This document shows positions 1 to 12,078 of a stretch of 12,078 bases of DNA, piece after piece. Source of the stretch: a virus; UHGV virus genome UHGV-0261881. The stretch is one strand, 5' to 3'. Every line of letters begins with the position of its first letter. The stretch's first letter is position 1. Position numbers and translations under genes: made by a program. Under the pieces are notes generated by a model, which searched no databases, was not told where the DNA came from, and saw only the letters and a list, made by a program, of their open reading frames with translations.

Positions 1-246
1 GCGGGTAGGTGTACCAAAAATAATGGCGTCGTAATCGGCCAGTTCTTGCGGGGTTGCAACCGGTGCAGTTTGCGTTTTACCGCCTGCTTTTTCAAATAAT
101 TGCGGCGGCATGGTTTCCGGTACACGCTTAACGACAACTTCTGCGCCATCCACTTTGCTTGCACCCTCAGCGACTGCGCGTGCCATCGTTTCAATATGTC
201 CGTACATGGAATAATAAAGCACTAGTATTCTTGCCTTAACACTCAT
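1..246 (-). CDS. wrbA: NAD(P)H:quinone oxidoreductase WrbA, N-terminal 82 codons (3' end runs off the window); first 8 codons supplied by the inserted element
   Basis: Minus-strand translation from ATG at 246-244 gives [82 protein letters not shown]. From VLYYSMYGH onward this matches the WrbA N-terminus as I recall it ([31 protein letters not shown]...). SD aggaga sits 8 nt upstream on the minus strand (plus 254-259). Confidence 0.92.
216..225. other. attL junction (host wrbA side | element side), crossover within or next to AAAGCAC
   Basis: Sequence ggaataatAAAGCAC|tagtattc: left part matches wrbA, right part does not. The same AAAGCAC is found at the right junction. Confidence 0.7.
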
Positions 247-297
247 ATCATTGTTCTCCTGTTCAATGAACCACTTAGATAAGCATAGTCCGAAGAT

Positions 298-1941
298 ATG
301 AAGCTGCTAGTGACATACATCAGGTGGAGTACTAAAGAGCAAGACTCAGGAGACTCCTTAAGACGGCAAACAAACCTCATTGATGCTTTCTACTCTAAGC
401 ACAAAAATGATTATTACCTTCTTCCTGCTCACAGATACGTTGATAAGGGTAAATCTGGTTTTCACCAGCAACATAAGAATCAAGGTTCTGACTTCAGACG
501 TATGTTTGAAAATGTTATGTCTGGGGCTATTCCAGAAGGTTCCTTGATTGTTGTAGAGAACTTTGACCGCTTCAGTAGGGCTGATATCGACACAGCTATA
601 GATGATGTCAGGCAGATACTGAGGAAAGGAGTCTCTATACTGACTCTGGGAGATGGTGAACTCTACGACAAATCAGCATTAACAGACCCTGTGAAGTTGA
701 TTAAGCACATCATCATAGCTGAGCGAGCACATCAGGAATCTCTTGTTAAACAAAAGCGTATAGCTCAGGTCTGGAACCATAAAACACAGCTTGCAAGAGA
801 ACTTAAGAAGCCTATGGGTAAGCAAGCCCCCGGATGGTTAGAGCTATCAGATGATGGTTCACACTACATCGTTGATGAAGATAAAGCGTCACTGGTGAAT
901 ATCATCTATGACAAGCGTCTTTCTGGTATGTCGATGTTTGCTATCTGCAAATGGCTAAACGAACAAGGTTACCCGACCATTAATCAGCGTAAGGTCAGAA
1001 TATCCAAGACTAAGAAACCTGATGGTAACTGGTCAGCATTAAGCGTTAAACACATCCTGACTTCACGAAGTGTATTAGGTTACCTTCCCGCTAAGATTTC
1101 TACAGAAGACCGTAAAACAGTGTTACGTGAAGAAATTGAAGGGTTCTATCCTCAGATTGTCACAGACTCTAAGTTTTACGCTGTACAGCAACTGTTAGAG
1201 GAAACAGGGAAGGGGAAAACATCCAGCGGTGAACACTGGCTATATGTGAACATACTGAAGGGGCTTATCCGTTGTAAGTGTGGGCTTGTAATGACTCCTA
1301 CAGGGATACGTAAACCCGTTTATCAAGGTACTTACCGTTGCAATGGTAATAAGGAGTCCCGTTGTAGCTACGGTACAGTGTCCAGAAAGTTACTTGATAC
1401 ACAGCTTTGTAGTCGTCTGTTTAGCAAACTGTCACAGCTACACGATGAAGCTACCGATACAGCTAAATTAGATGAACTGCAACGCAGACTAAACACCGTT
1501 GATAGTGAACTGGAAAAACTCACTGAGACGCTGATACAGCTTCCTAACATCACTCAGATTCAAGAAGCACTACGGGTTAAACAGGAAGAAAAAGATGAAC
1601 TGATAGTTCAGTTATCACGAGAAAAGGCGAGGGTAAAATCTGTATCAAGCTTGGATTTAAGCGGTCTTGATATGGAGTCTGTAGAGGGGAGAACTGAAGC
1701 CCAGATTATTATTAAGCGTTTGGTGAAAGAGATTGTTGTTTCTGGTAATGAAAAGCTGGTGGATATATATCTTCACAATGGAAATATGATTCGTGGTTTT
1801 CCTCTTGATGGTAAAGATGACCACACCTTAACGCTTGAAGAAGCAACCGATGAGATGCAGTCATTAGATGATATGCTTATTTTTGGTGAACCAGTAACAA
1901 GGATTTATCCTGCTGGTGATATGGAAGAGGTGGACGCTTAG
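298..1941 (+). CDS. Large serine recombinase (integrase), 547 aa
   Basis: N-terminal catalytic motifs YIRWSTKEQ (catalytic Ser), [15 protein letters not shown] and ERAHQESL. Cys-rich stretch IRCKCG...[14 protein letters not shown] consistent with a recombinase zinc ribbon. Coiled-coil-like C-terminal region ([21 protein letters not shown]). ATG start at 298. Position next to the att junction. Confidence 0.88.
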
Positions 1942-1944
1942 GAA

Positions 1945-1960
1945 TTGGTATTGTTACCAA
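1945..1960. terminator. Hairpin between convergent genes (TTGGTA-ttgt-TACCAA), possible bidirectional terminator without a clear U-tract
   Basis: Perfect 6-bp inverted repeat with a 4-nt loop, exactly filling the gap between the integrase stop (1939-1941) and the minus-strand gene stop (1961-1963). Confidence 0.3.
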
Positions 1961-2734
1961 TCAATAAGTGCCCTTCTTATTCGGATTCACACTAAATTTC
2001 CGTAAAGCATTACCCGACTTAAGCACTTTTGAAGCCTGCTCATTAGCTGAGGCTGTGAAGGTGCTTACACCATCTTTCACCGTGACATTTTTAGAGCAAT
2101 TGCTACGGACCCTTAGCGCTTCATCAGATAGCTCAGATGCTGAGTAGCTATACAGTTCCTGACACATCAACATAGGTGCGTTATTGCGTTCAGTAGTCAC
2201 GTTACCCGCATTCTTCTTAGAAGTTGCGCCACCATCATTTGTGGTAGCGGCCTTTCCAGTTGCAGCAGAGATATCAGTCTGACCAACAACAGCTTTAAAG
2301 TTAATTTCCTGAAAAGTTAGCTGGATTCTTAGACCATTTGAAATACCAACATCTTTAGATGCTTTAAAGCTTGTAATAATGGAATCATCAATTTTAATTC
2401 CGTCCTTACAGATAACAGAAATAATTTGCTTCTGGTCACGCCAGCTTTCAAGAGTGTCAATGAAGTTTTCTACTAATTGACCCTGACGAGTTAATAATAA
2501 GCTTCCTTCATAGCCAACTACAACGACACCACTAATAGTGATTGTTCTGGGTGCTCTTTGCACATTATCTGTGACGGTTTGCCCTGATTGCATGTTCTGT
2601 GTAGTCACCTGCATAGGGCTATCAAATTCCATGTTTTCAGTTGCTGATAAGGTTAAGAAGGCATCTACATTGTCTCTTAAGTGGAAATAGATGCCATCTT
2701 TGCCACTGTAACGAATCTGATTAGAGTAAATCAT
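1961..2734 (-). CDS. Hypothetical protein, 257 aa; weak resemblance to a phage distal-tail/structural protein given its position after the tape-measure-like gene
   Basis: Long ORF. The track's TTG start at 2755 is replaced here by the ATG at 2734-2732, which has a strong SD (aaggag, 7 nt upstream on the minus strand). Beta-rich-looking sequence ([15 protein letters not shown]). No catalytic motif recognised. Confidence 0.6.
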
Positions 2735-2813
2735 TAAATTCTCCTTTGATTTCAAAGGCTTAGTGTATTTTAATCATTTTTAACCAAGCCTTTGATATAT
2801 AAGTATTTTCTCT

Positions 2814-2895
2814 GTTAAGCGTGAGCTACGTAAATTCTATTTTTCAGTGCAGGTATTAACTTTGCTTTATTCACGTAGCATTCGACTATTCATAG
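2814..2895 (-). promoter_or_regulatory. Promoter-like cassette, copy A, upstream of the 257-aa gene
   Basis: About 37 bp nearly identical to copy B (taagcgtgagctacgtaaattctatttttcagtg). On the minus strand it reads ...ctgaaaaaTAGAATttacgtagc..., a -10-like TAGAAT with no good -35. Dyad arms GCTACGTAAAT (2825-2835) and ATTCACGTAGC (2869-2879) flank and overlap the -10. Confidence 0.45.
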
Positions 2896-2968
2896 TTGAA
2901 TCGTCATACTAGATAAAGATTAATAGATTGCCATGTGTGGCAATAAATATTAGTAGTTCTAACATTGT

Positions 2969-5044
2969 TTATTCCTCTGGGTAAGCTGAGCTAATCAAGG
3001 TATCTTCCTGCATACGATTAATATGCGATGTGGTTCTTTCATCAATAACCTTTCCATCAAGTACCGTCTGAGTTGTGATATTGATTGTCTGAGGCTGAAT
3101 GTTTACTGACGGCTTGATAACCTTTAAATCTTGTGTGAATGTTTCCACTCGACCTTTCAGATTATTTAATGCTTCAGGTGAAAACTGTGGAACATCTTTT
3201 GATTTGCCCTGAACCATAGCCCATAAAACAGCGGCTAAAGAGTTCATGTCACCAGACAATGCTTGGTCTGTAGGTTCCACCTTTGACCTTACAACTTTGT
3301 CAATTGGATTATCTGACTTACTCATCTGACGTTCATAGAACGGTTTAACAATGGAGTTAATCACATCAGTTGCCATACCGACAATCATTACTTTGGTAAT
3401 TGCATCAGCTACAGATAATTTTCCTTTACCACCTTCAACACTACCGGAACGTGAATTAATTCTTCCTGCTGCTGTATTTGCTACATTTCCAAGCGTGGAA
3501 ATAGCCCTAATTAAGCTCCAGATGCCACCTACAGCACCAATACCAGACCTTACAGCAACAATACCAGCAAGTCCCTTTAATGCACTTAACAGGCCATTTG
3601 CGATACCATCAGCTACAGCTTTTTGAGTGTCATTTAATTCTCTGTAAGCAAGGGTCACTCTGTCAAAGAATCCCTGCACTCGGTAGCTAATCGTGGTTAA
3701 ATCATCAATACCGTTTGACATACTTTTCATCAAGTCGCCAAAATGTTCACCAAGATTTTTAGATTGCCCACCTAGCGAATTAAGTAAATTAGTCAGTGAC
3801 CTTGTAAAGTCTGTTAAACCTTCCTGTGAACCGTCGAACATTAAGGCCAGATTATTATTCCATGAATTAGAAAGGCGGCCTAACTGCGTCTGAGTAGAGT
3901 TAATAATCTTTTCCCATCCACCAGCTTTATCAATCATCCTTCCCATTTCAGCGGATACTTTAGGAAGAACATCTTTAGAAAGAACTTTACCGTCTTTCAT
4001 AGCCTTGTCTAATTCTTCTGTAGTCATCCCAAGGCTTCTGGCAAATAACTGGAAAGCACCTGCCATTCTGTCACCTAATTGACCACGTAGCTCTTCAGCC
4101 TGAATCTTCCCTTTAGAAGCCATCTGCTCGAAAGCTTTCAGAATCCCGTTAATTTCATCAGTACTTAAACCCATTAATCTGGATGTGCCAATCACATTAC
4201 TAAATAAGGATTCTTTCTGGCCTGCATCCATATCACCAGCACCAGCGGAAAACTTAGCAAAACTGCTTAATGTTTCAATCTGGTCAACACCAGTATTATT
4301 AGCAAGATTCTTAACAAATTCTGTAGCTCGTTTAGCACCTTCATCACCTAAAACGAATTGTGCCGCTCGTTGTGATGCTTCTTTTTTCAGACCAACCTCC
4401 ATAATCTTCCTGTAAGCTTCTAAGGCTGTCTGAAAACTATAAATGGCTGTACCTGCTTTGATTGCACTTGTAGCTAATACATCCAGACCATTCGAAGCAT
4501 TTTCACTGTGATTATTTTTGCTGGTGGTCTTGTTAAACTTAGAAAGTGTTTCACGAAGAGACTGATTTAATTTTGCTAACTCACGATTAAAAGCTTCGTT
4601 TCCAAGTGTCTTGGATTTACTACTTAATGCGTAAAACTGACTCTTAATGTATTTCTCGACAATTGGGTTAAGACCTTTCAGCTTGCTCATATTCGCTGAA
4701 TAAGCTGCTGTGATTGCTCTGTTTCCGCTAATTCGTGGTTGCCTTGATTGTTTTGGAGGATTAACAGTGTCATTAAATCTGGTGGCAAACTGAAATGCTT
4801 TTGTGCTTCTTGCTCTCTGTTCAATCTTGTCAAAGGTCTTATTAAACTTCCTTTCAAGCTGCCCTAAAGAACTTGTCAGATTGCTGTCAAGTTGCTTGGT
4901 ATCGACCTTAAACGCTCTATTCAAATTGCGTTCAATTCTTTGTGCTGACTGCAAAGCTGCCTTTTCAACTCTTTGCAAGCCCTTAATAACGTTTTCACTG
5001 AAACTAAGTTCAACGATAAAACTATCAACTGTGAATTTGCTCAT
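2969..5044 (-). CDS. Tape-measure-like protein (phage tail length tape measure domain), 691 aa
   Basis: Central block GLSTDEINGILKAFEQMASKGKIQAEELRGQLGDRMAGAFQLFARSLGMTTEELDKAMKDGKV resembles the tape-measure core domain. Gly/Ala-rich hydrophobic segment (GLLSALKGLAGIVAVRSGIGAVGGIWSLIRAISTLG) and coiled-coil-like N-terminus are typical of tape measure proteins. ATG start with SD agaggtg. Confidence 0.65.
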   Translation of the reverse strand: MSKFTVDSFIVELSFSENVIKGLQRVEKAALQSAQRIERNLNRAFKVDTKQLDSNLTSSLGQLERKFNKTFDKIEQRARSTKAFQFATRFNDTVNPPKQSRQPRISGNRAITAAYSANMSKLKGLNPIVEKYIKSQFYALSSKSKTLGNEAFNRELAKLNQSLRETLSKFNKTTSKNNHSENASNGLDVLATSAIKAGTAIYSFQTALEAYRKIMEVGLKKEASQRAAQFVLGDEGAKRATEFVKNLANNTGVDQIETLSSFAKFSAGAGDMDAGQKESLFSNVIGTSRLMGLSTDEINGILKAFEQMASKGKIQAEELRGQLGDRMAGAFQLFARSLGMTTEELDKAMKDGKVLSKDVLPKVSAEMGRMIDKAGGWEKIINSTQTQLGRLSNSWNNNLALMFDGSQEGLTDFTRSLTNLLNSLGGQSKNLGEHFGDLMKSMSNGIDDLTTISYRVQGFFDRVTLAYRELNDTQKAVADGIANGLLSALKGLAGIVAVRSGIGAVGGIWSLIRAISTLGNVANTAAGRINSRSGSVEGGKGKLSVADAITKVMIVGMATDVINSIVKPFYERQMSKSDNPIDKVVRSKVEPTDQALSGDMNSLAAVLWAMVQGKSKDVPQFSPEALNNLKGRVETFTQDLKVIKPSVNIQPQTINITTQTVLDGKVIDERTTSHINRMQEDTLISSAYPEE

Positions 5045-5057
5045 TCATGTTTCACCT

Positions 5058-5140
5058 CTTTAAGCGTGAGCTACGTAAATTCTATTTTTCAGTGTGGATA
5101 TTAGCTTTACAGATTTCATGTAGCACACATAGGATTCGAT
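5058..5140 (-). promoter_or_regulatory. Promoter-like cassette, copy B, immediately upstream of the tape-measure-like gene
   Basis: Same core as copy A. -10-like TAGAAT on the minus strand (plus 5079-5084) sits about 35 nt upstream of the ATG at 5044. Lies between an intrinsic terminator (5160-5201) and the gene start. Confidence 0.5.
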
Positions 5141-5159
5141 AGAAGACTATCTCATATAC

Positions 5160-5201
5160 AAAAAAGGGAGAAACTACCGATATCACTCGATAATCTCTCC
5201 C
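5160..5201 (-). terminator. Rho-independent terminator after the 67-aa gene
   Basis: Minus strand reads GGGAGAgattatcgagtgatatcggtagttTCTCCC followed by TTTTTT: 6-bp GC-rich stem plus U-tract, about 25 nt downstream of the stop at 5227. Confidence 0.6.
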
Positions 5202-5226
5202 GTTGATTTTCACCCAACCAATCTTT

Positions 5227-5430
5227 TTACCTAACCAGATAATAATTACCATCTTCACCGACAATCTGACAATCACTTGGTAATTTATCAAGACACCATT
5301 TAGCGATTCTTCTGATTCTGTTATTTTGCTTAGAGGTGGATGATTTGATTCGTTTTGGTTTGTTGGGTTGTTCTTTCAGTCGTTCACTAATTGCCTTGAT
5401 GAGTTCATAGCGTTCTGTTAAATCAATCAT
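5227..5430 (-). CDS. Hypothetical small basic protein, 67 aa
   Basis: ATG start with a strong SD (aaggaggtg). N-terminus MIDLTERYEL is paralogous to the upstream 102-aa protein (MSDLTERDKR). Confidence 0.55.
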   Translation of the reverse strand: MIDLTERYELIKAISERLKEQPNKPKRIKSSTSKQNNRIRRIAKWCLDKLPSDCQIVGEDGNYYLVR

Positions 5431-5455
5431 TCACCACCTCCTTTTTAATTCGATT

Positions 5456-5764
5456 TTAATCTAAGTAGTGTATACACTCGACACCGCGTTCATTCTTTTG
5501 AATTTCATAACGTAGTGAAAGACCAGTTTGATAATACACAGTATCAAGCTTATTTATCTTATCCTTGAGTTCGATAAGAAGTCGCGTTAAATCATCCCGA
5601 CCATCACACTTTAGTTCGGCAAGAGGCTTTTCTTCCATACGACCAATAAGATATTCAGTGACCTCCTGAATATCACCAAGAGTCATTTTAATTTCATTGA
5701 ACCTATCTTCAAAAGGCTCCATCACCCATTTCATTCTTTTATCGCGTTCTGTTAAATCACTCAT
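5456..5764 (-). CDS. Hypothetical small acidic protein, 102 aa
   Basis: ATG start. Its start overlaps the stop region of the upstream 234-aa gene (5764 versus 5773), suggesting translational coupling. Shares the M-x-DLTER N-terminus with the 67-aa protein. Confidence 0.6.
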   Translation of the reverse strand: MSDLTERDKRMKWVMEPFEDRFNEIKMTLGDIQEVTEYLIGRMEEKPLAELKCDGRDDLTRLLIELKDKINKLDTVYYQTGLSLRYEIQKNERGVECIHYLD

Positions 5765-5772
5765 TATTCACC

Positions 5773-6477
5773 TCAAACAGCCTTGCTAAATTCTCGTGGA
5801 ACACTCAGAAAATCATTGAAGCTGATAATCTGTGCCAACTCTTGACGGTACTCCTTAGCCAGCGCTTGATGGTCACTAATCAGCTTAGCCAGTCTTGATT
5901 TCAGCAATTTAATCTCATTTTCTCTTGCTTTCATCAGTTTCTCTTTGGCAATTTCTTCAAGCTCAGCTTGTGATTTATCAGCAACAATTAGAGACAGTTG
6001 ATGTGGCGCTCTGATGGCCCTTTCCGTACGAATAACCCTTTGACCTTCTGGTAAATCTGCAATCACTTTACCAATCTCTACAGGGTCATACCCCCAACCG
6101 TCACGGTCTAGTCGAGAGAAATAAGCATAAGGATTGGTTTGAAGCTCCATCAAAATAGCCATTTCGTCGATTTCGTCTTCAAGCTTGGACTGAATTTTCT
6201 CGTAAACACTTCTCATTGCTTCTTGAGAGTCTTTAATAGCTTGGAAATATCGGCGTTGCAGCTTCAGTTTCAAATCAAGCTCACATTTCTCATTCATCGA
6301 AAAATCAATTTCAACTCTTGGAATCTCGAGTGGTTCTGGTGGAATATATGGACCTTTATTTACTTCGTGTGATTCCCGCCAAGCTCTATCAAAAGATTCA
6401 CGCAAAGTTAATTCGTGAATATCAAGTGCACTTGGTCTGTTCTCAACAATCATTTCATTTTCATCACGGATAGCCAT
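5773..6477 (-). CDS. Hypothetical protein, 234 aa, charged and coiled-coil-rich
   Basis: Long ORF with ATG start. Its SD (agaagagga) lies inside the 3' arm of an 11-bp hairpin. No motif recognised. Confidence 0.6.
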   Translation of the reverse strand: MAIRDENEMIVENRPSALDIHELTLRESFDRAWRESHEVNKGPYIPPEPLEIPRVEIDFSMNEKCELDLKLKLQRRYFQAIKDSQEAMRSVYEKIQSKLEDEIDEMAILMELQTNPYAYFSRLDRDGWGYDPVEIGKVIADLPEGQRVIRTERAIRAPHQLSLIVADKSQAELEEIAKEKLMKARENEIKLLKSRLAKLISDHQALAKEYRQELAQIISFNDFLSVPREFSKAV

Positions 6478-6487
6478 TAATATTTTT

Positions 6488-6556
6488 CCTCTTCTAAGAT
6501 AATTTACGTTTCAGTTTTTAAAAAGCACACCTGACAACCTACGAACTTAGAAGAGG
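6488..6556 (-). promoter_or_regulatory. 5'-UTR hairpin sequestering the SD of the 234-aa gene
   Basis: Perfect 11-bp inverted repeat CCTCTTCTAAG (6488-6498) / CTTAGAAGAGG (6546-6556) with a 47-nt loop. On the minus-strand mRNA the 3' arm contains the SD, 10 nt before the ATG. Confidence 0.5.
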
Positions 6557-6594
6557 CTTAAAAGGCGTTTGCCAAGTATGCTTTTTAAAAGCTG

Positions 6595-6631
6595 AAAAAA
6601 GCCCTAGATAACTAAAACGCTATAAAGGGCT
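6595..6631 (-). terminator. Rho-independent terminator ending the upstream minus-strand operon
   Basis: Minus strand reads AGCCCTttatagcgttttagttatctAGGGCT followed by TTTTT(T). Confidence 0.5.
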
Positions 6632-6949
6632 AAGGTGAAGAAATTAAAACATCTAAAGGATTCAATAACGAATGAACAAGAGTACTTTTCGAGATGACCT
6701 CTCAGGTTATATAAGAGGTCATGTAGCGAAAAGCATTGCACCTTTCCAAATCAGAATATCCATCCATCGGATTATTGAAAATATGATTTTAGGAAGAGTT
6801 GCTCTTCCCTATAATTAAAATTATGTCATACTTAAGGTTATTTGTCAACAGCCTTTTAACAGATTGGTAACATCAATTTCTATTTACTGTGTTGCCTACC
6901 CAGCAACCAACAAATAAGCCAAGCAACGTCCAAGCAATTATTAAGCCCA

Positions 6950-7279
6950 TTAGTGAACCCTCACAGAATCCGTAACCAAAATATTGTCGCTGTACAGGAT
7001 TGTCACAGCACCTTTCAAAAATTGCTCTGGGGAAATACTGTATTTGTTCGTTTGCTCGATAACCAATCTTTTCATGTTGCTGTCTTTAATTGGTAGCATC
7101 ATTCGAGGCTCGTTAAACTCCACCGACTGAATAAAGTCAGAGATGCTTTCCGCATTATCAGTCATTAACTCTAACAACTTATCAAAGTCAACGCTAACAC
7201 CTACATCAGCGAAAGCCTGAATCATCATGGCGGTGTCGGTATCAATAAAAATCTGTAGTGGGAAGTTTAATTCTCTCAT
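6950..7279 (-). CDS. Hypothetical protein, 109 aa
   Basis: ATG start with SD aaggag. Lies immediately downstream (minus strand) of structured repeat copy 1. Confidence 0.55.
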   Translation of the reverse strand: MRELNFPLQIFIDTDTAMMIQAFADVGVSVDFDKLLELMTDNAESISDFIQSVEFNEPRMMLPIKDSNMKRLVIEQTNKYSISPEQFLKGAVTILYSDNILVTDSVRVH

Positions 7280-7304
7280 TTCTTAAAATCTCCTTTTTAC
7301 CAGA

Positions 7305-7430
7305 CCTCCTCAATCGCTCTGTAACGAGCTAAACAGTCTTTTTCAGGGGTAGCCTGTACAGTGGTATTACCCACCCTAAAATAAGGTAGTTTTTTGCGTT
7401 AGAATGCGATTGAGAGCGTCTGAGAAGCTG
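7305..7430 (+). repeat. Structured inverted-terminus repeat (SIR), copy 1, between the HNH-like gene and the 109-aa gene
   Basis: Aligns base-for-base in the same order with copy 2 (same orientation) and with the reverse complement of copy 3. Shared blocks GCTCTGTAACGAG, CAGGGGTAG, TACCCACCCTAAAATAA, GTTAGAATGCG and AGAGCGTCTGAGAAGCT. Termini are mutually complementary (CTCAATCGC / GCGATTGAG). Confidence 0.75.
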
Positions 7431-7435
7431 TTTTT

Positions 7436-7723
7436 CTAATTTCTCTTAAAGTCTCGGACTTGCATAAGATTTTTTGGTCTGGTATCGGCTCTGTTACCAT
7501 TTCGATGGATAATTTGCTTGTTGGATTGATAGCCATGATAAAGGAACCAGACAACATATTTCACGTAGAAAGTATATCGGCCTATATTAAATGTTTTGTT
7601 GCCGTAGTCGTCGGTATTTATCGTGACTGACTCTCCATCAGACCAGCACAGGGAATCACTGGATTCATCATAGATAAGGTGTTCTGTAAAATATCGTCTA
7701 ACATCTTCATGCCAAGGTTTCAT
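7436..7723 (-). CDS. Small HNH-family endonuclease-like protein, 95 aa
   Basis: C-terminal YVKYVVWFLYHGYQSNKQIIHRNGNRADTRPKNLMQV resembles the HNH motif of phage-type HNH nucleases (consensus-like ...W..hnG...IDHINGN..DNR..NLR). ATG start overlaps the upstream gene by 4 nt. Confidence 0.55.
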   Translation of the reverse strand: MKPWHEDVRRYFTEHLIYDESSDSLCWSDGESVTINTDDYGNKTFNIGRYTFYVKYVVWFLYHGYQSNKQIIHRNGNRADTRPKNLMQVRDFKRN

Positions 7724-7935
7724 AAAACCTCCTCACCCCAATAACCTAATTCAATCTTGTGACGCTCAAACCATTCCGGTTTAACTGCTGTTTTCAGTAC
7801 TTCATTTGGGTCAATGGCTTTAATGAAAATATCTTTTGAGTTATGGATGTCACCGAATCCGTTTCCTTTAATCAGGAGGTCGGAGATGTAGCGAATCATT
7901 TTATCTGTGTGGTATTCAAAGGTAACGCATAGCAT
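7720..7935 (-). CDS. Hypothetical protein, 71 aa
   Basis: ATG start overlapping the upstream stop (TAATG). Part of a tightly coupled operon. Confidence 0.5.
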   Translation of the reverse strand: MLCVTFEYHTDKMIRYISDLLIKGNGFGDIHNSKDIFIKAIDPNEVLKTAVKPEWFERHKIELGYWGEEVL

Positions 7936-8213
7936 TAAACCTCCATCGCTAACTTGTGAATCTTAAGACTCAATAGACGGGCAATATCAATTTTAAAGCC
8001 GTTAAGTGCCTTCAAAGTATCTAAAGCGTCCTGACTAATTCGGATGTGCTTACGACCTTTAGAGACTGGATATTTAAGTAAATCCGACTCAGTGACCTCT
8101 TTAGCAATTGCAAGTTGCATAATAGTTTGATGAGGTAAGTTAGTTGCTTGTTTAATTCTGGTAAGCTCGTTAAAAGCTTCCTCTGAAATACGGGTTAATG
8201 TGTGTTTATTCAT
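7935..8213 (-). CDS. Putative ribbon-helix-helix (RHH)-like DNA-binding protein, 92 aa
   Basis: N-terminus KHTLTRISEEAFNELTRIKQATNLPHQTIMQLAIAKE fits a strand-helix-helix pattern like CopG/Arc-type RHH. A second similar pattern (HIRISQDALDTLKALNGFKIDIARLL) follows. Stop of the upstream gene directly abuts its ATG. Confidence 0.4.
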   Translation of the reverse strand: MNKHTLTRISEEAFNELTRIKQATNLPHQTIMQLAIAKEVTESDLLKYPVSKGRKHIRISQDALDTLKALNGFKIDIARLLSLKIHKLAMEV

Positions 8214-8768
8214 TTAAAATTCCTCTGTAACTAAATACGGGTCAAACTCGAAATCTGGTTCACTAATCGTAAGGCTGATATTGCCCACTTCCGCATGATG
8301 ATTAATTGTCTCAATAACTTTCATGCAAATAGTGGCTAAGTTAGCGCAATATTTATCGCTTGGTAATTCATAGCTAAGTCTGGTTGCTTGTCTTTGAAGA
8401 TGGCTCGTCACTGTGCTTGAGCTAATCTTATCAAGGCTTCGAAGCAAATAGAAAATCTTCCGGTGATAGTTATCCCTTCCAAAGCTGCGACAAGTGCCGA
8501 TAATTACATCTTCAATTCGTGATGGTAGTTGCTCGTAAGAATCAAAGCCCATCAAGAAAGTTTTTAAAGTATTTTCTTTTTCTTTGCGTGTTGGCATATA
8601 TCTGTCTCGTGGCGTAATGCTACGAATGACCGCTTCAATGTTCTTACGTTCGGATTTGCTAAAGGTTGGGACTTCGTAGCTGGTGGGGGTGTCTGTGTAG
8701 CTGTAACCGTTGCTTCTGTTTCTTGCTTTGCTCTCTTCAAGAAACTTTTGAAAATCTTTGTCGTTCAT
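8214..8768 (-). CDS. Hypothetical protein, 184 aa, first gene of the operon
   Basis: ATG start 43 nt downstream of a consensus-like promoter. No motif recognised. Confidence 0.6.
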   Translation of the reverse strand: MNDKDFQKFLEESKARNRSNGYSYTDTPTSYEVPTFSKSERKNIEAVIRSITPRDRYMPTRKEKENTLKTFLMGFDSYEQLPSRIEDVIIGTCRSFGRDNYHRKIFYLLRSLDKISSSTVTSHLQRQATRLSYELPSDKYCANLATICMKVIETINHHAEVGNISLTISEPDFEFDPYLVTEEF

Positions 8769-8817
8769 TCATAAGCTGGCCCTTATAATTGTTAATTTCC
8801 TGTTAACTATATATACA

Positions 8818-8846
8818 ATCTTAGCAGTTTCAAAGGCTAATGTCAA
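8818..8846 (-). promoter_or_regulatory. Sigma70-type promoter of the minus-strand four-gene operon
   Basis: Minus strand reads TTGACA (plus 8846-8841), a 17-nt spacer, then TAAGAT (plus 8823-8818). Confidence 0.6.
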
Positions 8847-8854
8847 GCATTTTT

Positions 8855-8884
8855 TTAACATTTGATTAACATTTATGGTATAAT
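8855..8884 (+). promoter_or_regulatory. Extended -10 promoter firing rightward into the ORF-poor region
   Basis: TTAACA (8855-8860), 18-nt spacer, TGgTATAAT (8876-8884). Divergent from the operon promoter. Confidence 0.55.
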
Positions 8885-8917
8885 GGTTTTATGAGAGAGG
8901 GAAAATATAAAGGCGTG

Positions 8918-8975
8918 GCTATGAGGTTTATTCGATAAACCGAATCAACTATGAGAATGGTCACATGGTTATTGC
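8918..8975 (+). repeat. Direct repeat Rep2, copy A (contains cgaatcaactatgag)
   Basis: Homologous to 10493-10592 in the same orientation (ctatgagRtt ... cgaatcaactatgag ... aatggttatt). Confidence 0.6.
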
Positions 8976-8986
8976 ATTGCACACAG

Positions 8987-9082
8987 GCCTCTTCAATCGC
9001 TCTGTAACGAGTTAAATGGCCTCTTCAGGTCAACTCATAAGGTCAGGTACTTTTTGTATCAGAATGCGATTGAGAGCGTCTT
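8987..9082 (+). repeat. Structured repeat (SIR), copy 2 (shorter), forming the leader of a small ORF
   Basis: Shares the 5' block cttcaatcGCTCTGTAACGAG and 3' block AGAATGCGATTGAGAGCGTCT with copy 1. The central part differs. Terminal 8-bp complementarity TCAATCGC / GCGATTGA. Confidence 0.7.
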
Positions 9083-9095
9083 ACAAGGAAAACTA

Positions 9096-9272
9096 ATGGT
9101 AAACCTCCCTCCTGAGCTGGGGTCACCTGATGTTTGGGCTGGTGGAGGTGTGGGTCTGATTGCAGGCCTGCTACTTCGCTACGTCCTCGTCAGAGTGCTT
9201 GTTGTCTTTAAACTGTTCGGTCGTACATGGACGCTTGACCTTAAGGATAATGACCACACAGACCCCCGTTAA
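9096..9272 (+). CDS. Putative small membrane protein, 58 aa
   Basis: ATG at 9096 with SD aagga 7 nt upstream. Translation MVNLPPELGSPDVWAGGGVGLIAGLLLRYVLVRVLVVFKLFGRTWTLDLKDNDHTDPR has one hydrophobic helix and a charged tail. Weak hairpin (CCCCT/AGGGG, 9286-9309) downstream. Confidence 0.35.
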   Translation: MVNLPPELGSPDVWAGGGVGLIAGLLLRYVLVRVLVVFKLFGRTWTLDLKDNDHTDPR

Positions 9273-9391
9273 ACCCCCTTCAAAACCCCTATACCATCTC
9301 GTACAGGGGTATCTTTAGCATTTTGTGCTATCTATTAAAAAATAGCTTGACAGAACCGGAAAGCTGTATTTATCAAGTATTCACCTCTCTG

Positions 9392-9564
9392 ACAGTGATT
9401 TCTAAAAATACTTATTTTTCAATGAGTTGTAATCACCCATATATAGAGAACTGACAAGTCTCTTCACAGAGAACTCTGTAACCTTAACAGTAATTTCTAA
9501 AAATACTTATTTTTCAATGAGTTGTAATCACCCAATATATAAGGCTGTCCAGTACCTTCACAGA
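9392..9564 (+). repeat. Tandem direct repeat, two units of ~80 bp with a 95-bp period
   Basis: Units 9392-9470 and 9487-9564 share a ~55-bp near-identical core (acagtRatttctaaaaatacttatttttcaatgagttgtaatcacccatatata) and a downstream cttcacaga. A GCTCTGTAAC-like motif lies between the units (9474-9482). Confidence 0.7.
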
Positions 9565-10375
9565 TGACTTCAAGCCTTCTTAGCTATCCACTAAGCGGGA
9601 GAAGAGCGATAACCCCAGAGAGGGAAGCTCCCTTCTAATTGGTATTGTTATGAGGATGCTTCATCCGAATCATCTACCAATCCCTAAACCGACTCTCTTA
9701 ACCAGCCCTTTACGTTATTCGTTCACAGTGTTGATAAGTGGTTTTGCCCTCTGTTTCTGTTATCATCGGGCTTACCTTATCAGGGCTTTGAAATGCCCTG
9801 TAACTCCCCTCTTAACGGGAGAGAAAGAACATAGTGACCCCAAGCGAAGCGCCCCTCTAAAAAGATTTTTTAGCTACTTTGTTTAAAAGCACATCAAACG
9901 ATACATTTTATTGATTTAGGTCAAAGACAAAAGCATTGACAAAATGGTAAGATTGTTCACATGACCTTACTTAACAGATTCTTAAGAGCTTTGAAACGGC
10001 CTATTTAACAAGGTCACTACCTACGGTTCTTCGTTTTCCTTCTTTCTAGGTAGTCATCTGTTAAGAGTTTTTCAGTCTTACTCTTAAGAATCACTGTTAA
10101 GATGATACTCTCCCCTTCGGGTTATATCGTATCTCTTCTCCCGTTAAACACCCCTTCCTAACTATCTACATAATCACTTCTAAGAATCTTACAAGGTAAT
10201 ATCCAGACCTCTTATAGTTGACCTGATACAGAAGTTTTACAGGCATACTCTCTAGGTTACTAATCGGGTGCTATCAAGGGCCACTAAACGAGAGAGGGGA
10301 TATGTGACCATAGGGGAACCCCTCCTGTTAAAAAGGCCACTTAGAAGTCTGAGACTTTAGTAAAATCTGTGAATA

Positions 10376-10492
10376 TAGCTTCTCAGGCGCTCTGTAACGC
10401 ATTCTAAGCGATTTTACCCCTTTATTTTAAGGTGGGTGGTACATCCCTATAGACTACCCCTAAAAATGGGGTTAAAACTCGCTACAGAGCTT
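10376..10492 (-). repeat. Structured repeat (SIR), copy 3, inverted relative to copies 1 and 2
   Basis: The reverse complement of 10371-10500 aligns along its length with copy 1 (blocks GCTCTGTAGCGAG, AGGGGTAG, TACCACCCACCTTAAAATAA, GCTTAGAATGCG, AGAGCGCCTGAGAAGCT). Termini are complementary (GCTCTGTAGCG / CGTTACAGAGC). Confidence 0.7.
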
Positions 10493-10592
10493 TCTATGAG
10501 ATTAGCTTCATGAAGTAATTCATTACTGAATCACCTAATCGAATCAACTATGAGGCTTGGTAAGATTGTGCAAAATCTGTACAATGGTTATT
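10493..10592 (+). repeat. Direct repeat Rep2, copy B
   Basis: See Rep2 copy A. Here it abuts SIR copy 3. Confidence 0.55.
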
Positions 10593-10850
10593 TGGCTTCT
10601 GAAAATTTTTACAAAAATCATAGTAGCCCTCTTTGAATCTCATCTTCCCCGAATCTTCAAAAATATCTGACAGATGTCTGTAGCTGCTAAGTACCCGTCA
10701 CACCAGCTATGTGACCCCCTTTGCAAAAAAGCCAAATATCTATTGACTTTCTATGTGAATTGCTATAAAGGCATCTATCTAGACCTTTAACTGTATAAAT
10801 ACACATGACAACAAACGCCCGTTAAGTGTCTATATAAAAAGGTAGCTGTA

Positions 10851-10895
10851 GCTATAGACAACAATTGTGATAATTGATTTAATGGCTATAGACAA
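10851..10895 (+). promoter_or_regulatory. Two direct GCTATAGACAA repeats upstream of the small recombinase gene (candidate operator or binding sites)
   Basis: Identical 11-mers at 10851-10861 and 10885-10895 (34-bp spacing). Related TATATAG-like motifs at 10828-10836 and 10914-10922. Confidence 0.4.
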
Positions 10896-10935
10896 GCAAG
10901 ACAGACCTTTGTTGACTATATAGAGAGATAAGAAC

Positions 10936-11505
10936 ATGCGTACATTCCTTTATGCTCGTGTATCAGTTGATGACCTCACCACACAAAACCAAGTAGAAGC
11001 TGTTAAACGTGCTGGTTATGAAGTCAAACCTTCACGAGTGATTGAGGAAGTTATTAGTGGTGCTACACCAGCTATGGACAGACCACAATTTGTAAAGCTG
11101 GTGGATAAGCTGGAAGAAGGTGATTGTCTTGTAGTGACCAAGATTGACCGCTTAGGAAGGGATAACATTGATGTACAGAAGACCGTCACAATGTTACTGG
11201 ATATGGGTGTGAAGCTAATTTGTTTAGACCTGCCTGTAAAAGACCTTTCAAGTGCTGAAGGTAAACTTATCCTTCAACTATTCAGTACCTTTGCAGAGTT
11301 TGAACTTAACCGCATCAGAGAGCGAACCAGAGAGGGCTTAGAACGAGCTAAAGCACAAGGTAAGGTGTTGGGTCGTCCTGTAGCTAAAAACACTACAGAG
11401 GCCGTTTTAGAGCATAAGGCAAAGGGATTGTCACAAAGTCAGGTTGCAAAGCTTCTGAATCTCTCTGTGAGAACGGTTAGCCGTCACTGGACAAAGACAC
11501 TGTAA
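10936..11505 (+). CDS. Small serine recombinase (resolvase/invertase family), 189 aa
   Basis: Motifs YARVS (catalytic Ser), VVTKIDRLGRD and ERTREGLERAKAQGKVLGRP, plus a C-terminal helix-turn-helix (GLSQSQVAKLLNLSVRTVSRH). ATG start. Confidence 0.88.
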   Translation: MRTFLYARVSVDDLTTQNQVEAVKRAGYEVKPSRVIEEVISGATPAMDRPQFVKLVDKLEEGDCLVVTKIDRLGRDNIDVQKTVTMLLDMGVKLICLDLPVKDLSSAEGKLILQLFSTFAEFELNRIRERTREGLERAKAQGKVLGRPVAKNTTEAVLEHKAKGLSQSQVAKLLNLSVRTVSRHWTKTL

Positions 11506-11526
11506 GAAACTTAGTAGCATCTTCAT

Positions 11527-11550
11527 AGCCTCCTTCATGGGGGCTTTTTT
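11527..11550 (+). terminator. Rho-independent terminator after the small recombinase gene
   Basis: AGCCTCC-ttcat-GGGGGCT stem (one G-U pair) followed by TTTTTT, about 22 nt after the stop. Confidence 0.6.
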
Positions 11551-11558
11551 GTATCCAC

Positions 11559-11626
11559 TCTCTAAGCGTGTCCTACGCAAAATCTCCTGAACACTTACCC
11601 ACCCTCAGAAATAACTTTCACGTAAG
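11559..11626. repeat. Diverged third copy of the promoter-like cassette (copy C), containing a TTACCCACCCT block shared with the SIR repeats
   Basis: ctctaagcgtgtcctacgcaaaatctc resembles the cassette A/B core. The loop contains ttacccaccctcagaaataa, similar to TACCCACCCTAAAATAA in SIR copy 1. 3' arm ctttcacgtaag. Confidence 0.45.
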
Positions 11627-11937
11627 AAACTGTTAAGCAGCTTGATAGTTATTCTGTGTGACCAAACATCTATATATCGTTATATAGTCCTGTATATAGC
11701 ACTTTTCTAGGAGTCGAGAGAGGGACGACTAACACGATACAGTTTACCCTGAAAAGAGACTTCACAGATTCTCTATATATTTCAATAAGTTAGGCTAAAA
11801 AGAGACTATACCGATACTGCATAGAATCTGTGTAAAACTGCTTAGATACTTGGGAAAATGCCTTTAAATTGAATAGGGATTCACCTGATATTGTCCTGTT
11901 ATTAACAGGTAGTTGAATGTACGTGTTTAGCTATGTA

Positions 11938-11947
11938 AAAGCACCAG
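11938..11947. other. attR junction (element side | host wrbA side)
   Basis: Sequence ctatgtaaAAAGCAC|cagaactttagccat: the right part is the reverse complement of the native wrbA start ATGGCTAAAGTTCTGGTGC. Confidence 0.7.
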
Positions 11948-12078
11948 AACTTTAGCCATTTCTAACCACTCCTCGTGTTATCTCTATTCCGTAGCGATTC
12001 GCTACCACTTATTTAAAGATAAGACGTCCTTTTCAGAGTGCAAATTTCACAACCACTTATTTGATTTATAACAACTTT
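11945..12078 (-). other. wrbA: Displaced native wrbA start codon (11959-11957), first codons, SD and native upstream region
   Basis: Minus strand reads gaggagtggttagaaATGGCTAAAGTTCTGGTGC..., giving MAKVLV, the native WrbA N-terminus. It is separated from the rest of wrbA (1-222) by the element. Confidence 0.8.

Follow-up and report, generated by a model that had tools for sequence, protein, structure and literature searches.

The DNA-binding domain (DBD) of resolvase binds a 12-mer, and res consists of three dimer-binding sites that share 12-bp motifs and have central spacers differing by 3 and 9 bp (PMC9943657). In Tn3 resolvase, the residues R2, R32, K54, and E56 constitute the regulatory R ("2-3") interface, which holds the synapse of the accessory sites together. 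In the case of Sin, the half-sites of site II are arranged in direct repeat, and Sin-type resolvases serve plasmids, not transposons (PMC9943657). The present analysis concerns the window, that is, the whole 12,078-nt stretch of the virus genome UHGV-0261881, which carries an ~11.7-kb element (window about 226-11943) situated between wrbA and ymdF, an arrangement found likewise in related Escherichia coli chromosomes. The element encodes a small serine recombinase of 189 aa (10936..11505, + strand), comprising a resolvase catalytic domain and a C-terminal helix-turn-helix (HTH). The repeats at 10827-10926, just upstream of this gene, are quite probably the half-sites of the adjacent recombinase and would together form a res-like multi-subsite recombination and regulatory site, and a cluster of TATATA motifs downstream of the gene appears to be separate from them.

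The protein possesses the features of a resolvase. PF00239 matches residues 4-143 (E=7e-35), and several HTH Pfam families match residues 155-187, mutually consistent and each below its curated cut-off; the alignment of the C-terminal region with the DBD of gamma-delta extends to residue 182. The best solved relatives are gamma-delta resolvase (1e-23) and Tn3 resolvase (3e-19), followed by Gin invertase (1e-16) and Sin (1.7e-12). In the alignment with gamma-delta resolvase, the YARVS motif with Ser10 and the DRLGRD motif are intact, and all four residues of the R interface are kept, with R2, R34, K58, and E60 corresponding to R2, R32, K54, and E56 of gamma-delta. The conservation of Ser10, the DRLGRD motif, and the R interface in this alignment argues for an active recombinase. 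A scan of viral contigs returned only distant relatives of the protein (about 36% identity). The gene is the sole open reading frame (ORF) of an exchangeable recombinase cassette (10741..11611), which is delimited by BLAST breakpoints against conserved flanks and contains the array, the gene, and the intrinsic terminator of the gene (11527..11545, + strand), a stem-loop followed by TTTTTTG.

A preliminary description of the window had pointed to two identical 11-mers 34 bp apart and to recurring TATATAG-like motifs, taken as a cooperative protein-binding array with a phasing of about one helical turn. All of the motifs it quoted are present where it placed them. The 11-mer GCTATAGACAA occurs exactly twice in the window (10851-10861 and 10885-10895, 34 bp from start to start), 75 and 41 bp upstream of the recombinase ATG (10936), and the TATATAG-like motifs GTCTATATA and GACTATATA are located at 10828-36 and 10914-22. 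The repeat unit, however, is not the 11-mer, whose two copies are merely the right-hand half-sites of two neighboring subsites, but a 12-bp half-site, TGTCTATA(G/T)nnn, present in both orientations with four strong copies within the 100 bp of 10827-10926. The orientation of the half-sites is mixed, and their centres are about 22, 34, and 30-31 bp apart, which does not agree with an organisation by helical phasing. A cooperative protein-binding array is nevertheless very probable for the upstream set. The arrangement is most likely that of a res-type multi-subsite recombination site and not that of motifs placed one helical turn apart.

The motifs are not random, and shuffles show that their frequency is not explained by the local A+T content. 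Exact TGTCTATA, counted on either strand, occurs three times in the window, all within the 68 bp of 10827-10894, compared with a mean of 0.48 in dinucleotide shuffles of the whole window, only 3/500 of which reach at least three. In the 200-bp upstream region, an exact local repeat of 11 nt is matched by 11 of 2000 local shuffles, and an 8-mer used three times by 32 of 2000. TATATAG occurs nine times in the window against 1.9 expected, a count reached by none of 200 shuffles.

The four strong half-sites are designated a (TGTCTATATAAA, 10827-38, + strand), b (TGTCTATAGCTA, 10849-60, - strand), c (TGTCTATAGCCA, 10883-94, - strand), and d (TGACTATATAGA, 10913-24, + strand, or TCTCTATATAGT as read on the - strand; feature span 10913..10926). 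Half-sites a and b form an inverted pair of 34 bp (10827..10860) with the central dinucleotide TA at 10843-44, and the pair holds the first copy of GCTATAGACAA. Both rank high, second and third of 24,134, in a position weight matrix (PWM) that was itself built from these sites. The pair is the favoured candidate for the crossover subsite, because it is the best symmetric pair, has an even length and a central TA, and possesses A-rich inner halves like the distal "site I" of the marine relatives; alternatively, it may be the analogue of a 34-bp "site II". After a gap of 5 bp follows the candidate subsite x/c of 29 bp (10866..10894), composed of a weak left half x (TGTGATAATTGA, 10866-77, + strand) and the strong right half c, and holding the second copy of GCTATAGACAA; the pairing of x with c is tentative, since x has a poor PWM score (top 7%). 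This geometry of a/b, gap, and x/c recalls that of res sites. Half-site d lies 10-23 bp upstream of the ATG, adjoins the ribosome-binding site (RBS), and probably serves as an accessory or autoregulatory site. It contains the 10-mer TATATAGAGA, of which the window has three copies against 0.06 expected.

Upstream of a/b lies a further, highly conserved part (10782..10826), which contains the possible subsite f/e of 29 bp (10782-10810), with the weak halves GACCTTTAACTG and TGTCATGTGTAT and the AT-rich centre GTATAAAT, together with the invariant CATGACAACAAACGCCCGTTAAG. The role of this part is uncertain; it may be an alternative "site I", a site for a host factor, or a promoter element. A canonical three-site layout was also considered, in which f/e (29 bp) is separated by 16 bp from a/b (34 bp) and a/b by 5 bp from x/c (29 bp). 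This layout is kept as an alternative only; it imitates the gamma-delta res, rests on weak half-sites, and includes f, e, and x, all ranked poorly by the PWM. Within the weak half-site f, positions 10781-10786 read AGACCT in the window and in L001, L004, and others, and the exact reverse complement AGGTCT in most relatives, which corresponds either to two adjacent substitutions or to a 6-bp flip.

The comparison with relatives makes the case for the array. In 22 unique upstream regions of type A, TGTCTA and TAGACAACAA in the outer parts of a/b, TGATAA and CTATAGAC in x/c, and CCTTTGTTGnCTATATAGA in d are invariant or nearly so, and 10803-10826 is fully invariant, whereas the spacer 10895-10901 varies freely. 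The alignment looks like a footprint, with invariant half-site cores set against a variable spacer. Furthermore, in L003, L004, and L112-114 the upstream 190 bp are 91-96% identical to the window and the coding sequence of the linker and HTH 96-99%, whereas that of the catalytic domain is only 66-67% identical at the nucleotide level. Judged from the segment compared (window 10936-11354), these mosaic recombinases represent a natural catalytic-domain swap within one specificity class. Because the upstream array and the HTH are conserved where the catalytic domain has been exchanged, the sites and the DBD are inherited together.

Other elements of the same family in E. coli carry different cassettes between the conserved flanks, namely type B in the opposite orientation (L005, L007, and L090-92), type C (L089), or 375 bp without a gene (L006). 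In type B, six GTCTCAWAAG half-sites are situated within 122 bp upstream of the ATG (seven matches in the locus against 0.84 expected); they form two inverted pairs, of 28 and 33 bp, and one direct pair. In type C, the ATACCG-type repeats are weak, and their three copies equal the within-gene control. Marine homologues of about 60-64% identity, from Vibrio, Shewanella, Photobacterium, Psychromonas, and others, have a median of six GGTATCA/TGATACC words in -170..-1, compared with a count of zero in the control region (38 unique loci). The same three-site layout is found in Pseudomonas L033 and in L137, with GACACCAG or GGTGTCAT in more distant relatives, and, with six half-sites and again the GGTATCA word, on a 4.1-kb Providencia plasmid, the recombinase of which is 54% identical. 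Across these loci, the putative binding motif covaries with the type of recombinase. In the marine loci, the homologues with their GGTATCA arrays (L009-L031; for example L012 985-5795 and L019 1715-5871) lie directly downstream of a module of AlpA-HTH and tyrosine integrase and upstream of variable defence-type cargo, including TIR and SLATT domain proteins and a type I HsdM; the predicted resolvase module there marks the edge of the cargo region.

A mechanism can be proposed on this basis. Dimers of the recombinase would occupy the inverted pair a/b of 34 bp together with no fewer than two other sites (x/c and d). When two arrays stand in direct repeat on one supercoiled molecule, dimers at the accessory sites would synapse through the conserved R interface; such pairs of arrays would be present where the element has inserted in tandem, or where its excised, replicating form has become a dimer or multimer. 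Strand exchange, activated by the synapse, would then take place within a single subsite, for which a/b with the TA at its centre is the likeliest choice, and would convert multimers to monomers. Occupancy close to the RBS (d), on the downstream side of a putative extended -10 (10761-69), would probably also repress the recombinase's own gene.

Several points weigh against a res-like site. Only four half-sites are strong, and with x, f, and e scoring poorly by the PWM a clean three-dimer res cannot be drawn from the window, whose layout also departs from the six half-sites seen in the relatives. A crossover site of 34 bp would exceed the 28-bp site I of gamma-delta. The statistics obtained from the window itself are moderate for the upstream repeats (p about 0.006-0.016), and it is the comparative evidence that carries the argument. 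Half-site d may belong to another motif family, given that TATATAGAGA is shared with two sites outside the cassette (9440 and 11770). With one array per element, a substrate for resolution would exist only in multimers or tandem copies, and among the 11-13-kb metagenome contigs examined no circular, excised copy was found, those contigs carrying chromosomal flanks. Finally, the core of the half-site is partly palindromic (TGTCTATAGACA), so that operators of 12-14 bp, bound by a dimeric HTH protein, are a formal possibility.

This last point leads to the best-surviving alternative, in which the repeats are only operators, near-palindromes of the TGTCTATAGACA type where a promoter would be repressed by the HTH of the recombinase or by some other HTH protein encoded in the element, and no recombination takes place. 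Half-site c is a perfect 12-bp palindrome (TGTCTATAGACA) in L001 and L088, d abuts the RBS, and an extended -10-like TGcTATAAA at 10761-69 can be read directly from the sequence; the occurrence of TATATAGAGA outside the cassette points the same way. Resolvases of the Tn3/gamma-delta type are, moreover, autorepressors at res. A consensus promoter scan detected no sigma-70-like site on the relevant strand in 10741-10935 or 11660-11800, and the candidates located by hand are weak, the second being a putative TTGTGA-16-TATAGA at 10865-92. Against operators alone stand the intact Ser10, DRLGRD motif, and R interface, the classic six-half-site res layouts of the relatives, including that on a small plasmid, and the absence of any other protein encoded by the cassette. 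Regulation and recombination are also compatible at res sites, and an exclusively regulatory role is therefore considered unlikely.

Downstream of the gene, the TATATA cluster CATCTATATATCGTTATATAGTCCTGTATATAGCAC (11667..11702) stands at the start of a conserved right-end block. Its TATATA motifs start at 11671, 11681, and 11693, that is, 10 and 12 bp apart; a helically phased array does not follow from these distances, which concern three copies only and include a first copy that is not conserved in relatives. The cluster itself is not a product of chance composition. The right flank of 303 bp holds four TATATA where 0.36 would be expected (p=0.001), and three non-overlapping copies within 30 bp appear in none of 5000 local shuffles of this flank. 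The second and third motifs (CGTTATATAnnCCTGTATATAGCAC) are well conserved in relatives and the first is variable. Conservation of the segment CGTTATATA..CCTGTATATAGCAC extends over 26 unique sequences, among them elements of type B, elements of type C, and those with no recombinase, and the block as a whole (about 11664-11916, ~250 bp) is 80-95% conserved in these sequences whatever small recombinase is present. Because the block is conserved with another recombinase or none, the TATATA cluster is not the cognate array of this recombinase.

The two sets of motifs had earlier been treated as one system. A single phased array for one protein across both regions, resembling iterons or an origin, or a nucleation site for H-NS or IHF that spans the gene, would agree with the enrichment of TATATA(G) in the ORF-poor 8770-11914, which holds 10 of the 13 copies of the window, with the 10- and 12-bp distances downstream, and with g3 (TGTATATAGC), one base off the half-site; TCGTTATATA presumably also resembles a published high-affinity motif of H-NS. 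However, the upstream set changes with the type of recombinase and the downstream set remains constant, so the two do not belong together. In addition, the distances between the upstream motifs do not correspond to full helical turns, the first of the downstream motifs varies among relatives, and the most divergent copy (L088) has altered TATATA cores with the surrounding bases kept. Such a common array is accordingly improbable.

Slightly less probable still is an invertible switch, in which an invertase of the Hin/Gin type flips its own gene between inverted TATATAG arms at 10914-10930 and 11673-11689. It is true that the gene is flanked by an inverted repeat of 17 nt (82% complementary), that the best phage-family match of the protein is PHROG 125, annotated as "DNA invertase", and that the recombinase gene between the common flanks points one way in some elements and the opposite way in others. 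The search for inversion used a synthetic inverted junction, composed of the left flank to 10913 and the reverse complement of 11689-11330; none of 5,426 complete E. coli genomes covers at least 80% of it, 297 carry the parts, and the switch was rejected on this result. The type A loci examined are, furthermore, all collinear. The genes in opposite orientation belong to a different allele that is non-homologous at the DNA level, and the boundaries lie at 10741 and 11611 and not at the repeat arms. The right arm is, moreover, conserved in elements without this recombinase, and the protein is nearer to the resolvases, with R2 and E56 of the R interface retained. Chance AT-rich words or -10-like hexamers of no specific function, for which the 60-65% A+T of the region, the likeness of TATATA to the -10 consensus, and single-window p-values of about 0.01 for the upstream repeats might speak, are hardly credible in view of the shuffles, the strong conservation in 22-26 unique sequences, the parallel arrays in dozens of relatives, and the negative promoter scan.

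The right-end block contains further features. Within 11664..11916 are situated GAGAGGGACGACTAACAC, 34-nt direct repeats (11744-77 and 11790-823), a 10-bp inverted repeat (CACAGATTCT at 11763-72 and AGAATCTGTG at 11823-32), an IHF-consensus-like TTTCAATAAGTTA (11780-92), and a terminal perfect palindrome CCTGTTATTAACAGG (11899-11913), which lies just inside the integrase-specific att arm (about 11917-11943) and is conserved whatever the integration site. The IHF-consensus-like pattern TTTCAATRAGTTR occurs three times in the window against 0.01 expected. Both TATATAGAGA and TTTCAATRAGTTR stand adjacent to each other at 9417-9449 and 11770-11792, with 9512-9524 and 10917-10926 as additional positions of these words, which suggests a regulatory module that recurs and differs from the half-sites of the recombinase.

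Among 5,426 complete E. coli genomes, 578 match some part of the module at 10598-11914, and many of these match the right block only. Compared with 50,697 phage records at E<=1, the right block gave no match and is therefore not copied from a known cos or pac region of phages. Rfam returned no hit for the block and only a spurious plant microRNA match far from the region. A reading of the block as an RNA gene was examined with RNAalifold on 26 sequences and both strands and found no support; the folding gave invariant inverted repeats only and no covariation. The best guess is that the block is a nucleoprotein assembly region for an element-level function, such as packaging, replication, or regulation beside attP, possibly with IHF or H-NS-type proteins.

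The setting of the element is defined by its junctions. Over its right-hand 141 bases, the window matches the wrbA region of E. coli, a known prophage insertion site, with 100% identity. When the parts of wrbA found at the two ends are compared, the true right junction falls near 11943; in elements at other insertion loci, the shared sequence ends at about 11914-11916. The relatives lie beside wrbA, beside a truncated DUF72 gene next to yecN, and beside yciI, yegS, and dinB. At wrbA, the first codons of the gene (MAKVLVL...) are exchanged for an element-encoded start (window 181-245 on the - strand; 11938-11975), whereby a wrbA ORF of intact length is kept, and RefSeq annotates this ORF in related genomes as a normal 201-aa WrbA.

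The element further encodes a large serine recombinase (integrase, 298-1941), a Dit-like baseplate protein, a tape measure protein, small proteins, an HNH nuclease, and probable tail chaperones with a tube protein. Capsid, terminase, and replication genes are not recognisable among the genes of the element. It looks like a member of an uncharacterised satellite-like family, for which literature searches returned no specific description. It is conceivable, as a tentative proposal, that the window belongs to an undescribed family of satellite-like integrative elements of ~11-12 kb, the end block of which is carried by about 10% of complete E. coli genomes, and in which the right block would act as a cis-acting packaging or replication signal and the recombinase and res cassettes would be interchangeable accessory modules that resolve multimers.

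A region of ~2 kb (8770-10740) with no ORF longer than 78 aa is nevertheless 80-90% conserved in related E. coli elements (L001, L003, L007, and L089-L091); other elements have a methyltransferase or HTH gene in this part. It includes an ~85-bp tandem duplicate (9392-9473 and 9487-9564). A hairpin-like segment of ~52 bp, TTGGTATTGTTATGAGGATGCTTCATCCGAATCATCTACCAA, is located at 9636-9687 and recurs in L006 (3350-3401) and L092 (3879-3930), and shorter pieces, CTATGAGG...CCGAATCAAC, are found at 8919-8955 and 10530-10556, with a placement that differs among related elements. In the ~88-kb coliphages NBEco004 and NBEco005, the segment or its pieces are likewise found, no more than a few hundred bases from the record start, and in EC106 at 82.7 kb of 87.8 kb. 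The recurring segment looks like a small mobile palindromic insert.

For annotation, a "recombinase family protein" accompanied by unexplained repeats would become a resolvase and res module with a testable half-site, TGTCTATA(G/T), and candidate subsites. Related resolvases with distinct, readable specificities (TGTCTATA, GTCTCAWAAG, GGTATCA, and GGTGTCA) could help in engineering orthogonal serine recombinases. The upstream site belongs to a well-known kind; the conserved end block, possibly more interesting than the upstream repeats, and the element family are less ordinary, and the block flags a widespread and apparently uncharacterised family of elements in E. coli.

Compared with the invertases Hin, Gin, Cin, and Pin, the locus shares the protein superfamily, a phage-like context, the PHROG annotation, and a weak inverted repeat that flanks the gene. 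It differs in having no inverted isoform in the 5,426 genomes, in a protein that retains R2 and E56 and is less similar to the invertases than to the resolvases, and in a clustered array of several half-sites instead of two isolated 26-bp crossover sites.

The likeness to Tn3 and gamma-delta is closer. Here too a small serine recombinase with the catalytic Ser10, a C-terminal HTH, and the four R-interface residues is encoded, its closest solved structures being those of this group, and a 12-bp half-site beginning with TGTC is present in several copies and in inverted pairs with different spacers immediately upstream of the gene. A 34-bp subsite is followed after about 5 bp by a shorter subsite, and a dual role in recombination and autoregulation is likely. 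Unlike Tn3 and gamma-delta, the window contains neither a Tn3-family (DDE TnpA) transposase nor 38-bp terminal repeats, the proteins are only ~35% identical, and four strong half-sites do not allow a clean 28/34/25 three-site layout to be shown. In contrast to a Tn3 transposon, the neighbors are phage-tail genes, an HNH gene, and a large serine integrase, and the element is bounded by wrbA att junctions.

In the case of the plasmid resolvases (Sin, beta, and the ParA/RP4 type), the differences lie in the array of the window, which has no clear direct-repeat subsite and gives no evidence for an HU or IHF site between subsites, and, for Sin, in a weaker sequence similarity (E=1.7e-12). With these systems the locus shares the occurrence of one putative res with its resolvase on a non-transposon replicon, presumably for multimer resolution. 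The gene-proximal subsite of the relatives has its half-sites in direct repeat, as does site II of Sin (PMC9943657), and a 54% identical homologue with a six-half-site array is itself carried on a plasmid of 4.1 kb.

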